Shown here: positions 9,286-36,229 of the stretch, one piece after another
Layout: every line of letters begins with the position of its first letter
Position numbering within the stretch: position 1 is the first letter of the stretch
From: Eledone cirrhosa
Taxonomy: Eukaryota
Direction of reading: 5' to 3'
Length of the DNA stretch: 64,000 nt
NCBI GenBank assembly: GCA_964016885.1
Contig: OZ024747.1
Location: forward strand, 39,742,001-39,806,000
Notes under the pieces: generated by a model
Databases searched by the model: none
Told to the model about the DNA's origin: nothing
What the model saw: only the letters and a program-made list of their open reading frames with translations
Program-made: the position numbers and the translations under genes

Positions 9286-9301
9286 ATTATTATTATTTCA
9301 T

Positions 9302-9471
9302 TGTCCCTCGGAAGTCTCCCCCCTATTGGGGAATTTTTTCATTGTTCTATTATTACATCCTCTGTTTTTTGATTTTTTACACGCAGAAATGCCCTTTTGT
9401 ACCGTCCTCTATTGTCCTGTACAGTCCTTAATGTCTACTTTGTGTAAACCCTTGTGGTTAATAAAGAAAGC
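9302..9471 (+). mobile_element. 5'-truncated copy (3' UTR only) of Tx1 family A
   Basis: Direct repeat of 15215-15383 with about a dozen differences. Ends AATAAAGAAAGC followed by (ATT)6. Confidence 0.9.
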
Positions 9472-9706
9472 ATTATTATTATTATTATTGGCGACCTACG
9501 TAGTAAATCGTATTATCGTGAGCTCCGCAAAGGTTTGTTATTTTCAGTTGTTTAAAATTGCCATTTATGGAAAATTTTTATTGTTAACTGTATATAAGTT
9601 CACATACATTGTTTTCTGAAAAGGACACTCAAAAAGATTGGGGCCTTGAGCCCAAAATTTAAACTTTTTATAATTATCAAACAAAAAAAAATTTCTTTGA
9701 AAAATC

Positions 9707-32379: not shown

Positions 32380-35300
32380 ATGGATGTGTTAAGAGTAGGA
32401 TGTTTGAATGCACGTGGCCTGGGCTCAACTTGGAAGCAAGCAAAGCTTCTAAATGACCTCAAGTCATGTAGTATAAATGTAATGGTTATCTGTGAGACTC
32501 GAATCAGCGTCATGCGGCAGCTGGCCCCCACCTTCGATGACTTTGAGGTGCATGCATCTCTCTGTCAACCTGGAGGTGGGGGTGGGGTTGTCGTGCTGCT
32601 GCAAAAACACCTGGGTCTTGCCGTACAGGTTGTGCACTCGGACCCGGAGGGTCGTTTGTTGGTGCTAGACGTTGGCAGTAGTGAAAGTGCGGCCTTGAGA
32701 CTGGTCGCCGTCTACTCCCCTTTCGGAGCTGAACGGCCCGACTTCTTCCAGCGTTTGGAGACTTTTCTGGGAACGTCGCGTTCCCTGCTTCTAGCGGGGG
32801 ATTGGAATGACATCCTGGATGCACGTTGGGACTATGCAGGAGCATGTCCTAATAGAGGGGGGTGTAACAGCCTCAAGGGGTTACTCGACCGTTTTAACTT
32901 GGTCGATAGATATCGACTAGATTTTCCAACTGTGCCTACCTGGACTTGGAGAAACCACAGTGGTCAATCTAGATCGTACTTAGATAGATTCTTAGTTAGA
33001 AGTAAGGATAGGGACATATTAAGCTGTCCAGAAATGCGCACGGTTGGCTACACGGATCACAAATTAGTGACCTGCGTGGTCAATCTCGAGAAAACACATA
33101 GACAGGGTCCCGGTTACTGGAAACTTAATTTGTCGTTACCGGCAAAAGAGACTTACAGAAACCGGATTAGCAGATTAGTTAAGGAGAGGTTGACGGGTGC
33201 AATCGTCAACAACCGATGGTGGGCATCTCTCAAAAGAGAAATTAGAACAGAATCAATAAGTTATAGCAAGATGTTAGCTGCCAATAGGAATAGAAACGAG
33301 AAAGAATTAACAGGTAAATTAGAAGAGGCAATCAAGAGCGAAGATGTGGCCAGAGTGATGGCATCGAGGACGGCCTTGAACCAGTTTTTCGATGCAAAGC
33401 ATGAAGGCTGCGTCATTCGAAGTAAAATACGTGCTCTAGGTAATGAGGGGGCCAAAGCCGTTGGATGGGCCCGCGTGACAGAAGCTAAAAGTGGAAATCG
33501 ATCCACCATCCGGTCGTTGCAAGACGAAGATGGACGAGTGATCCGGGAGCCTAAGCAGATGTGCGAGGCCTTTCAAAAGCACTTTGCCCGATTGTTCGGG
33601 GGAGGCGAGGGTCCGGGCCGGGGCGTGGATTTCGGTCCATACCTCGACGGCCTGCCGCGTCTCTCGAACAAAGAGGCAGAGTCCTGCGAGGGACCAATCT
33701 CGGCTGATGAGATCGGAGATGCGCTGAGCCAATGCAGCAGACGCAAATCTCCAGGTCTCGATGGTATACCTTACGAACTTTATTTAGCAATGCCGGTCTT
33801 CTTCTCCGAACTCCTCGAAGCGGTCTACTGCAATTGGCAGCAGAACGGGAGAATTCCTTGTTCTGTAGCCAAGGGCGTAGTCACGCTGGTGAGGAAGGAC
33901 GAGAACAAGGGGGATAGTATAAATAATTTTCGGCCCATAACCCTGCTAAACACAGAGTTAAAGATTTTGGCCAAGGTGTTAGCAAAGAGGTTGGCGCTTG
34001 TCGTGGGTGGCCTGGTGGGAGATGCGCAGACATGTGCAATCCCATCCAGGTCCATTCACGATAACCTCCACCTCATGCGATACATCATAGAGAGGGTTGG
34101 CAACAAACCCGGCTTCGGTGGGGCCCTGATCAACTTGGATCAGTCTAAGGCCTTCGATAGGGTCGACCATGGTTACCTGGATGCGGTGCTAGCGGCGGCT
34201 GGGTTCGGTCCTGTTTTCAGAGGCTGGATCACTGCCCTACATAGCAACCACATCTGTTCTAGGATCAAGGTGAACGGCTACCTTTCGAAGCCGTTCGAAA
34301 TCACACGATCCATTCGACAGGGGTGCCCTCTCTCCTCCCTTCTGTACGTATTGACTCTCGAGCCTTTACTGAGGAAGTTGGAGTTGTTGCAGGGTATCCC
34401 CCTGGAACCAGGATTGAGCAAAGCGGTGTCGGCCTACGCCGATGACGTAACAGTAATGGTATCAACCGACTCGGAGATCGAGGCGATCGGTACCTTACTG
34501 GAGGAGTACGAAAGGTTGTCAGGAGCGAAACTGAACCGGGAAAAATCCATCGGGCTGCAACTCGGAACGTGGAGAGGCAAACCGATGCCTCCTGACGGTG
34601 TCGTCGGACACTGGACGGAGGGCCCGGTAAAGTTGCTTGGGGTCTGGTTTGGACCGGACCTCCAGGTGGAAAAGAACTGGAACGAGGTTACGAACAAGGT
34701 GTTTGCACTAACCCAGAAATGGGCCAAGTGTAAGCTGTCCCTAAAAGGCCGGGCGGAGGTGGCGAACATTTACATAGCGTCCGTCACTTACTACCGCCTG
34801 ACTGTCGTGCCTTGCCCTAAGGAAACACTCACCACCATGGAACGCATGCTCTTCCAATTTCTTTGGAAGAAGCGTCCTCCTATGGTGAGAAGATCCATCT
34901 GCTGCCAACAACCTTCGAAAGGAGGGCTGGGGATGCCGTGGTTGATGATGCGTAGGCACGCATTAAGGCTACGGCACCTACAGGTATTCCTCACTGGTCA
35001 ACCGGTGTGGGCTCCGTTCGTGAAACGAGCCTTTCCGAGACTCGTCTCACTCACCGAGCTACAGTCCTGGGTCAAGCAAAGATCCGGAAAACTGGGAGAC
35101 TGGCACACTGAGTGTGCTCAGGCGCTCAGGGCTCTCTGGCAAGCGGGCCGGGCCATCGGTGGAGAATCCACCTCATCATTCTATAGAGGGCTGGTGGCTA
35201 GCAGGGGCGATGACACCCTTGGAGAGTCGCTGGACATGGAGGAAGACGAACTGGCCAGCCTGTTCGGTAGGACTTTCGGCCCAGGACCAATGGACAACTT

Positions 35301-35817
35301 CCAGAAGTCACTGGCCTGGCAGTGCTACCGAGGGGCTCTACCCGTTCGAGAGAGGCTCTACAGACACGGGCGCCCGGGCAGGGATCCCTCAAAAAAGATT
35401 TGCCCTAGATGCGTGCGTCACGAAGAAACCGTGGCGCACGCATTGGTGCAATGTCCGGGCGTGGCTGATCTGTGGGGCTACGCCGAACAACTGCTGTCGC
35501 GGGTGGCGCCGATTAAATTGACCGCCGAGTCCGTGATGACAATCAAACCGCCTCCCCTCTTCACAAAGGAAGCAAAGGCGGTTTTTCTGTGCGTAATAGC
35601 CATGTTGAAAGAGGTTGTTTGGTGGACACGATTGAAAGGTCTGAGGTCAGGCAACTTCCTCTCTGGCCATAGTCTGGTCTACTTCTTCCGATATCACTTC
35701 GGAAGAAGGATAAGAATGGAGAGAGAGGTGCTTGGCCACAGGCAGTTTTATGAAAGGTGGGTGATAGTGGCGAGAATGGCTCGTGTAAATGGGCCTTCTC
35801 TGTATACCATCCTGTAG
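32380..35817 (+). CDS. Tx1 ORF2p: APE endonuclease, reverse transcriptase and C-terminal zinc finger
   Basis: 1145 aa. APE motifs LNARGL/CETR/AVYSP/GDWN/SYLDRF/TDHK; RT motifs KSPGLDG/FRPITLLN/LDQSKAFDRVDH/RQGCPLS/YADD; CPRCVRHEETVAHALVQC. Confidence 0.97.
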   Translation: MDVLRVGCLNARGLGSTWKQAKLLNDLKSCSINVMVICETRISVMRQLAPTFDDFEVHASLCQPGGGGGVVVLLQKHLGLAVQVVHSDPEGRLLVLDVGSSESAALRLVAVYSPFGAERPDFFQRLETFLGTSRSLLLAGDWNDILDARWDYAGACPNRGGCNSLKGLLDRFNLVDRYRLDFPTVPTWTWRNHSGQSRSYLDRFLVRSKDRDILSCPEMRTVGYTDHKLVTCVVNLEKTHRQGPGYWKLNLSLPAKETYRNRISRLVKERLTGAIVNNRWWASLKREIRTESISYSKMLAANRNRNEKELTGKLEEAIKSEDVARVMASRTALNQFFDAKHEGCVIRSKIRALGNEGAKAVGWARVTEAKSGNRSTIRSLQDEDGRVIREPKQMCEAFQKHFARLFGGGEGPGRGVDFGPYLDGLPRLSNKEAESCEGPISADEIGDALSQCSRRKSPGLDGIPYELYLAMPVFFSELLEAVYCNWQQNGRIPCSVAKGVVTLVRKDENKGDSINNFRPITLLNTELKILAKVLAKRLALVVGGLVGDAQTCAIPSRSIHDNLHLMRYIIERVGNKPGFGGALINLDQSKAFDRVDHGYLDAVLAAAGFGPVFRGWITALHSNHICSRIKVNGYLSKPFEITRSIRQGCPLSSLLYVLTLEPLLRKLELLQGIPLEPGLSKAVSAYADDVTVMVSTDSEIEAIGTLLEEYERLSGAKLNREKSIGLQLGTWRGKPMPPDGVVGHWTEGPVKLLGVWFGPDLQVEKNWNEVTNKVFALTQKWAKCKLSLKGRAEVANIYIASVTYYRLTVVPCPKETLTTMERMLFQFLWKKRPPMVRRSICCQQPSKGGLGMPWLMMRRHALRLRHLQVFLTGQPVWAPFVKRAFPRLVSLTELQSWVKQRSGKLGDWHTECAQALRALWQAGRAIGGESTSSFYRGLVASRGDDTLGESLDMEEDELASLFGRTFGPGPMDNFQKSLAWQCYRGALPVRERLYRHGRPGRDPSKKICPRCVRHEETVAHALVQCPGVADLWGYAEQLLSRVAPIKLTAESVMTIKPPPLFTKEAKAVFLCVIAMLKEVVWWTRLKGLRSGNFLSGHSLVYFFRYHFGRRIRMEREVLGHRQFYERWVIVARMARVNGPSLYTIL

Positions 35818-36229
35818 GTAAAGAAGTAAAGGAGAGGGGAGCACCTTCTCCATGTGCTCCCCGGGCAAAGGATTGCACACTTTTTCGGGGGTGTGTGCAA
35901 CCCCCATCACGTCCCCTCCCTTTTGAGGTTATTTTCGATTATTTTCATGTTACACCCTTTTTACTCGATTATATGTAAACTCCCCCTTTGTATTTGTCCC
36001 TTCTTTTTATGCCTTTATGGTAAATAAAGAAATCTATCTTTCACTCACACGTTCTTACTCTTTCTCTCTCTGCCACTCTCTTTCGATCTGCTTATATCTA
36101 TATAGGGAGAGAGCGAGTGGAGAGAGAGAGAGAGAGAGAGAGAGAGAGAGAGAGAGAGAGAGAGAGAGAGAGAGAGAGAACAGAATTTATAGCGAAGGCC
36201 TTTTGAAGTTGTGTATAAATTTATCTATT

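Follow-up and report, generated by a model that had tools for sequence, protein, structure and literature searches.

Introduction

An open reading frame 1 (ORF1) with a CCHC zinc knuckle is a feature of the Tx1 clade of retrotransposons, elements of the L1 clade proper carry a poly(A) tail and insert in a dispersed manner, and Dong, a member of the R4 clade, has a restriction-like endonuclease (RLE) at its C terminus. The present study deals with a stretch of 64,000 nucleotides of Eledone cirrhosa DNA (assembly GCA_964016885.1, contig OZ024747.1, positions 39,742,001 to 39,806,000 of the forward strand; hereafter the window), in which two related retrotransposon families, A and B, encoding an apurinic/apyrimidinic-type endonuclease (APE) and a reverse transcriptase (RT), lie in (ATT)n and (ATCT)n repeats, respectively.

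Kibi in (TC)n, Koshi in (TTC)n and the crocodilian Tx1 elements in (TTCC)n/(TTTC)n are likewise APE-type members of the Tx1 group, each family showing a preference for one microsatellite and related families differing in the unit (PMC4494074, PMC3812793). Xenopus Tx1 (Tx1L), which is found in the non-autonomous piggyBac Tx1D, and crocodilian Tx1-Mar, found in Mariner-N4, are similar to family C described below, which sits in a miniature inverted-repeat transposable element (MITE) (PMC4494074, PMC1950540). The endonuclease (EN) of Tx1L is sequence-specific in vitro (PMC1950540). More than 20% of the flanks has served as criterion for a target preference (PMC4494074), and according to a review it is poorly understood how APE-type elements find their microsatellite targets (PMC3812793).

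Two related elements in the window

The components of the A and B loci are listed below; SINE stands for short interspersed element and UTR for untranslated region.

9286..9297, + strand: (ATT)4, 5' flank of the truncated family A copy
9302..9471, + strand: 5'-truncated family A copy, 3' UTR only, with 4 bases ahead of it
9472..9489, + strand: (ATT)6, separating the two A copies
9490..15383, + strand: family A element, full-length, decayed, ending AATAAAGAAAGC
from about 9708, + strand: A ORF1 remnant, single CCHC-type knuckle
11270..11455, + strand: SINE-like repeat within the A ORF1 region, many copies in the window (80-90%)
11769..15133, + strand: A ORF2 remnant
15372..15377, + strand: AATAAA of A
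15384..15400, + strand: 17 bp ATT repeat 3' of A, without poly(A)
30192..30202, + strand: stub AATAAAGAAAG interrupting the (ATCT)n run
30217..30236, + strand: 5' copy of the 20-bp target duplication of B, ATCTATCTTTCACTCACACG
30237..30239, + strand: 3 unmatched bases between the 5' duplication copy and B
30240..36031, + strand: family B element, full-length, intact, with AATAAA at 36023-36028
30469..32346, + strand: B ORF1, 625 aa, one CX2CX4HX4C knuckle
32380..35817, + strand: B ORF2, 1145 aa, with APE endonuclease (PF03372), RT (PF00078) and C-terminal zinc-binding region (PF13966)
36032..36051, + strand: 3' copy of the 20-bp duplication, ATCTATCTTTCACTCACACG, without poly(A)

A previous reading made from the sequence alone (the sequence-only reading) had placed (ATT)n on both sides of A and a second, truncated A copy in the same tract, and these coordinates bear it out; the truncated copy matches the end of the full one (15215-15400) at 94% in an alignment within the window. 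The A copy of the window is decayed by stops, frameshifts and the SINE-like insert, and only B is intact there. The stub AATAAAGAAAG ahead of B likely represents the outermost part of a sister-subfamily element that terminates in AATAAAGAAAG-AT; this ending was also seen on sister copies in locus L170 and 5' of locus L245.

A and B are classified by their sequences as APE-RT retrotransposons of the L1/Tx1 group. The best solved relative of B ORF2 was human L1 ORF2p (PDB 8sxt, E 5.5e-51; R2, E 2.4e-20), the closest named protein was one of Argonauta hians with 68% identity, in keeping with an octopod as the likely host, and the catalytic motifs of the endonuclease are intact. The ORF2 regions of A and B align with 68% identity in nucleotides over 3416 columns, and the two ORF2 are about 60% identical (52-70% in pieces of the protein, about 58% in the EN and about 72% in the RT domain); the protein pieces of ORF1 share 30-39%. 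The zinc knuckle in B ORF1 is CHICAGRGHLKAAC, with a degenerate counterpart in A, and a Pfam search with B ORF1 gave no match. Membership of the lineage in the Tx1 clade is likely, B having the N-terminal APE with an L1-group RT, the CCHC knuckle in ORF1 and the target preference; the sole TX1-labelled match was a coral protein with 31% identity, which stood on a long branch of the tree.

Flanks and target duplications in the genome

The flanks of further copies were collected with queries that ended at the element ends, so that the flanks themselves were not selected. All of the 30 sampled 3' flanks of A began with ATT repeats after a two-base linker, and all of the 30 of B began with AT[C/A]TAT. 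Poly(A) was present at none of these 60 ends in spite of the intact AATAAA, which sets both families apart from the L1 clade proper and confirms what had been proposed from the single copies. On the 5' side (ATT)n preceded 40 of 40 full-length A copies, with exactly ATT at the junction in 39. For 15 A copies the match stopped within the locus; 4 of these were internal deletions, and of the 11 clean truncation junctions that remained, 8 lie in ATT and 3 do not. In the case of B, 87 copies with both junctions were analysed (40 of them chosen by tail type and a few being tandem neighbours; locus L350 was left out, having no junction in view). The motif TCTAT[C/A]T was found at most 32 bp 5' of all 60 full-length and 18 of the 27 truncated copies, as compared with 26 of 1999 tiles of the window. 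The repeats are thus present 5' of full-length as well as truncated copies, and the possibility raised beforehand, that they occur only 3' as a tail, did not materialize.

In 28 of the 87 B copies the duplication reached into non-repeat DNA; 26 of these duplications measured 18-25 bp and the two longer ones sit in secondary repeats. Since the duplications run into unique DNA, the target must have been present before the insertion. At some B targets (loci L324, L349, L352) only one and a half repeat units were available. What B reads is therefore a short core, in which (ATCT)n is rich, and its requirement looks like TCTAT[C/A]T rather than a long array. The targeting of (ATT)n by A and of TCTAT[C/A]T by B is real, and the preference in the flanks of A, B and C is well above the 20% used for Tx1-type targeting. 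The claim that two related families use (ATT)n and (ATCT)n is thus supported by genome-wide flanks, by the tree given below and by the coordinates.

Eight truncated B copies (L051, L251, L253, L259, L328, L346, L347, L362) had an ATCT-type 3' flank and neither repeat nor duplication 5'; target deletion, later rearrangement or a pure tail may account for them. At loci L034/L035/L077-L079, L053/L054, L224-L226 and L240-L241, members of one family or of sister families followed each other head to tail, 15-40 bases apart in one repeat tract. Three further candidate families were considered. An (AC)n family was rejected, its 9 overlapping matches coming from 5 places and being B2-type or related ends. 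A (TC)n family was not supported, as the sampled subfamilies behind its 430 overlapping matches also precede ATCT repeats, and the CCACTCTATATATA ends of a (TA)n family turned out to be the MITE repeat described below.

Genome-wide, the exact 3'-end pattern of A had no fewer than 9,124 occurrences and that of B no fewer than 1,540, both counts being lower bounds with the final pattern letter restricted; a looser end motif common to the lineage had 43,003, and its reversed control 20. The scored B matches were 100% identical across 202 bases in 40 of 40 cases, and 15 of 20 B copies, picked by their 5' end, kept an ORF2 frame of 1155-1156 residues. From 20 A copies, 4 of which had no 3' end in view, 16 with both ends were scored; none had an intact ORF2, the longest frame being 609 residues. 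B is young and A is older. Sequencing runs with two other organism labels (X5 and X6) contained 54% of the sampled words of the B 3' part, and since contigs of X5 span B with few differences, B has close relatives outside the present species label.

Origin of the letters at the 3' junction

Of the 28 B duplications that were informative, 12 did not agree with the 5' (genomic) copy in the 3 bases that open the 3' copy, and in these the 3' copy always had the ATC or ATA of the family. The target ATCT had become ATAT eight times and ATAT had become ATCT once, while GTCT, CTCT and TTCT targets were replaced once each; since ATAT copies were deliberately over-sampled, 12/28 is no population rate. 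Thus the first 3 or more letters of the 3' duplication of B belong to the element and not to the target, and 3 bases or more have to be subtracted from the apparent length of the duplication. Of the target site duplication (TSD) ascribed to B by the sequence-only reading, the 20-bp repeat stands, and the first 3 or more letters of its 3' copy have to be given to the element.

The variants at the junction were compared with single-nucleotide polymorphisms (SNPs) inside the elements. The ATAT variant was associated post hoc with one SNP group (3/6 vs 0/39, p=0.0014). In 40 new copies, for which the prediction had been fixed beforehand, SNP 4636C was present in 16 of 18 ATAT and 7 of 16 ATCT copies (p=0.009; copies with coverage only). 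The linker of A likewise follows element SNPs (8/8 vs 5/25, p=9e-5, the best of 105 tests). Some 3' runs far exceed what the 5' tract could supply, as in locus L132 with 66 pure bases; later slippage could be the source of such long runs.

Lineage, family C and the endonuclease

In sixty regions (40 from the first matches to the shared motif and 20 picked for particular ends), no fewer than three ATT families could be told apart, along with about eight of the ATCT type. A tree of the whole ORF2 (13 copies and 7 outgroups) supported the ATT clade with 97/97, A3 included, and the ATCT clade with 100/99, which places the ATT and ATCT families as sister clades. The target class follows this tree with two changes, the minimum possible, in agreement with the suggestion that the lineage has diversified across microsatellite targets. 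Trees of single domains were weaker and did not fix the root. An endonuclease swap in A3 was considered, an RT-only quick tree having put A3 with the ATCT clade, but the domain trees did not bear it out (approximately unbiased (AU) tests, 0.19, 0.45 and 0.03).

Family C, the ORF2 of which is 79% identical to B (EN 75%, RT 86%), is nested among the ATCT families (AU p=0.025 against ATCT-only monophyly). All of 30 C copies, from about 24 separate loci as judged by coordinates and each more than 99% identical, had a single insertion point in common within a 72-bp tandem repeat, and the target site ACTCTATAT is similar to the B core.

L201:180-6098 and L284-L313: family C examples, young, intact ORF2, often in tandem arrays

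The 72-bp repeat is part of an element that is flanked by TTAA and bears terminal inverted repeats. Both ends of this element were seen in 6 of 10 loci and its left end had 8,865 matches genome-wide; it is probably a piggyBac-like MITE. The MITE (L314-L323) is about 215-285 bp long with one or two units and longer when the unit is amplified, and the TA run of the unit also takes other insertions (loci L315, L319).

In the loop aligned to the bB6-bB5 hairpin of L1, A, A2 and A3 have WTNRIGSSR and the ATCT families WxNxSGxSR, and 23 EN positions separate the four ATT rows from the six ATCT/C rows. A and A2 share 87% in EN and 80% in RT, the reverse of the relation found between A and B and in cross-class pairs; A2 and A3 are equal in both domains (70%). 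Since the loop split between ATT and ATCT is one evolutionary event, it is a correlation only. A role in L1 has been described for the hairpin, and grafted loops did not pass on specificity in a modular way (PMC1950540). The identity of the C loop with that of the ATCT family B7 argues against a simple loop code. A and B do not make a ready pair of retargeted enzymes, since none of 16 A copies has an intact ORF2, unlike B and C. Moreover, letters of the junction are supplied by the RNA end, and the endonuclease need not explain the switch by itself.

5' junctions

B joins its target through a long duplication and 0-8 unmatched bases. In full-length A no informative TSD was found in 34 pairs; a duplication flagged at locus L279 was a register artefact, and in 7 pairs the 3' run of 7-11 bases is the upper limit for any duplication. 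One truncated A copy (L003) had a 15 bp duplication with a mismatch. A joins exactly and C always at the same base of its repeat unit; at locus L221 a C-type unit stands 5' even though the target on the 3' side belongs to a diverged unit. The fixed joins are likely due to pairing of upstream letters of the target, which the RNAs of A and C would carry, as suggested in part by that single locus. Nothing spoke for a ribozyme at the sharply defined 5' ends: in the window Rfam yielded no match that reached the gathering level, 4 loci gave only weak, repeat-driven matches, and the folds of the 5' ends were no better than those of shuffles (z 0.32, 0.41, -0.07, -1.46).

Mechanism and alternative explanations

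The explanation that we prefer, with a probability of about 0.62, is target-primed reverse transcription, in which for A and B a family-specific APE nick together with the short pairing of a target-like RNA end would set the choice of the repeat. The endonuclease of each family would nick its own repeat, and a nick at a T/A step would fit A, B and C. Because poly(A) is missing and the ends are target-like, the transcripts would run past AAUAAA into the repeat, and the letters just beyond AAUAAA would pair with the nicked strand and prime copying in place of poly(A).

Several points weigh against this. The evidence on the mechanism is genomic sequence, from which we infer the nick, the transcript ends and the priming, as well as the share of the endonuclease in the choice of the site. 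Only 3 junction bases are proven to come from the element, and these could also be an ordinary fixed end and not read-through. The ATAT variant is limited to older copies, so that age confounds the SNP test, but not the mismatch test. The TCTAT[C/A]T motif was missing 5' of 9 of the 27 truncated B copies, and no empty-site joint for B was present among the matches listed (4 of 24 sequencing runs, junction repeats being skipped). Neither loop letter nor target can be separated from ancestry, there being one change on the tree, and C has changed its target with the loop of B7 and no excess divergence of the EN.

It was also considered that the RNA pairing chooses the site, the endonuclease being a loose T/A nicker, and that a new flank, once picked up, becomes the new target. 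The junction letters are element-derived and heritable, every subfamily has its own degenerate first repeat unit following AATAAAGAAA, C has moved to a MITE site similar to the B core with an unchanged loop, and one off-target B copy (L262) has just a 6-7-bp match to the tail. However, mismatches in the first bases are tolerated and target variants from position 6 on persist in the 3' copy, so that the proven pairing is short; a few bases would hardly yield 30 of 30 insertions at one MITE position, the repeats also lie on that side of the nick with which the tail cannot pair, and the Tx1L endonuclease is specific on its own (PMC1950540). We consider this possibility unlikely. The related notion that the RNA end of a long interspersed element (LINE) is a heritable guide to the landing site, by which a microsatellite element could move to a single MITE site with its EN almost unchanged, is equally doubtful; if it were true, the intact enzyme of B or C could be directed to other sites by rewriting the RNA ends.

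It is rather improbable that the endonuclease alone sets the site, the letters after AATAAAGAAA being a fixed end of the element and pairing being irrelevant. The limit of 3 proven bases and the conservation of EN positions with target class would suit such a model, which in turn has to face 60 of 60 ends free of poly(A) with AATAAA intact, end letters that mimic the target of the family in all three classes, and 3' runs longer than the 5' tract supplies, as at L132, slippage being a possible source of these. That there is no targeting, the repeats arising from element tails or the elements merely surviving in repeat-rich DNA, is highly improbable even in a genome rich in such repeats and with many copies in the tails of earlier ones, as the 5' repeats have fixed polarity and phase, unique DNA is part of the duplications, and families keep to their own targets; moreover, with 99-100% identity among their copies, B and C are too young to have been sorted by survival.

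Other features of the window

The (ATT)n tract of A also contains an unrelated retrotransposon of another type.

7506..9285, - strand: 5'-truncated RLE-type LINE (R2/R4, Dong-like) in the ATT tract of A, in opposite orientation, with RVT_1 match

Its best PDB matches were R2 proteins and it has C-terminal CRVC/RHD/ADII..D motifs; (AAT)n stands at each end, with a TTA array at 7473-7505. We take it to be Dong-like from the motif set and the target. An abundant SINE-like repeat of about 185 bp ending in ATT repeats was observed at 29346-29936, there in tandem, and at many other places; the A copies at loci L095, L101 and L108 are among those inside its tail. A piece of a further RT-encoding element lies at 4219-5145 on the - strand (weak RVT_1 match), 29/146-bp tandem arrays at 24224-24733, and a 71-bp array, related to 1048-1448, at 51220-51628.

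Comparison with known systems

In the parts of the literature covered by our searches, no report was found of cephalopod Tx1-like elements targeting (ATT)n, (ATCT)n or a MITE. The annotation of O. vulgaris lists 13 recently active L1-Tx1 families, and the word 'target' is absent from the available part of that paper (PMC13282606); consensus sequences of relatives are therefore probably in libraries. Target switching among Tx1 elements is already known from Kibi, Koshi and Tx1/Tx1D, the habit having been described in fish, frogs and crocodiles, and what appears to be new here is the targets. In one genome there is a natural series of young B and C with intact ORF2 and different sites, and the ATT clade as a deeper contrast, so that the roles of endonuclease and RNA end could be told apart by exchanging domains and tails. 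The findings further imply that a large number of the (ATT)n and (GATA)n loci in the genome are insertion hot spots.

Human L1 ORF2p (PDB 8sxt) has the same EN-RT-zinc layout as B, but L1 is dispersed and ends in poly(A). Dong uses (TAA)n, the same repeat as family A (PMC3812793), and the Dong-like element of the window lies in opposite orientation to A; A and B carry an APE instead. In R1Bm and SART1Bm there is likewise an APE nick, and letters of the RNA that resemble the target have been proposed to pair with the primer strand, but these elements belong to the R1 clade and have rDNA and telomere targets, and SART1Bm inserts a poly(A) tail (PMC7265360). In contrast to Xenopus Tx1 in Tx1D, family C is nested inside a clade that targets microsatellites. 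The likeness to Kibi and Koshi is one of target habit; the flanks of A and B are not (TC)n or (TTC)n. Compared with these and the crocodilian Tx1 elements, the targets of A and B, (ATT)n and (ATCT)n, are not pyrimidine-only repeats, and here three target classes occur in one genome, in tens of thousands of copies.

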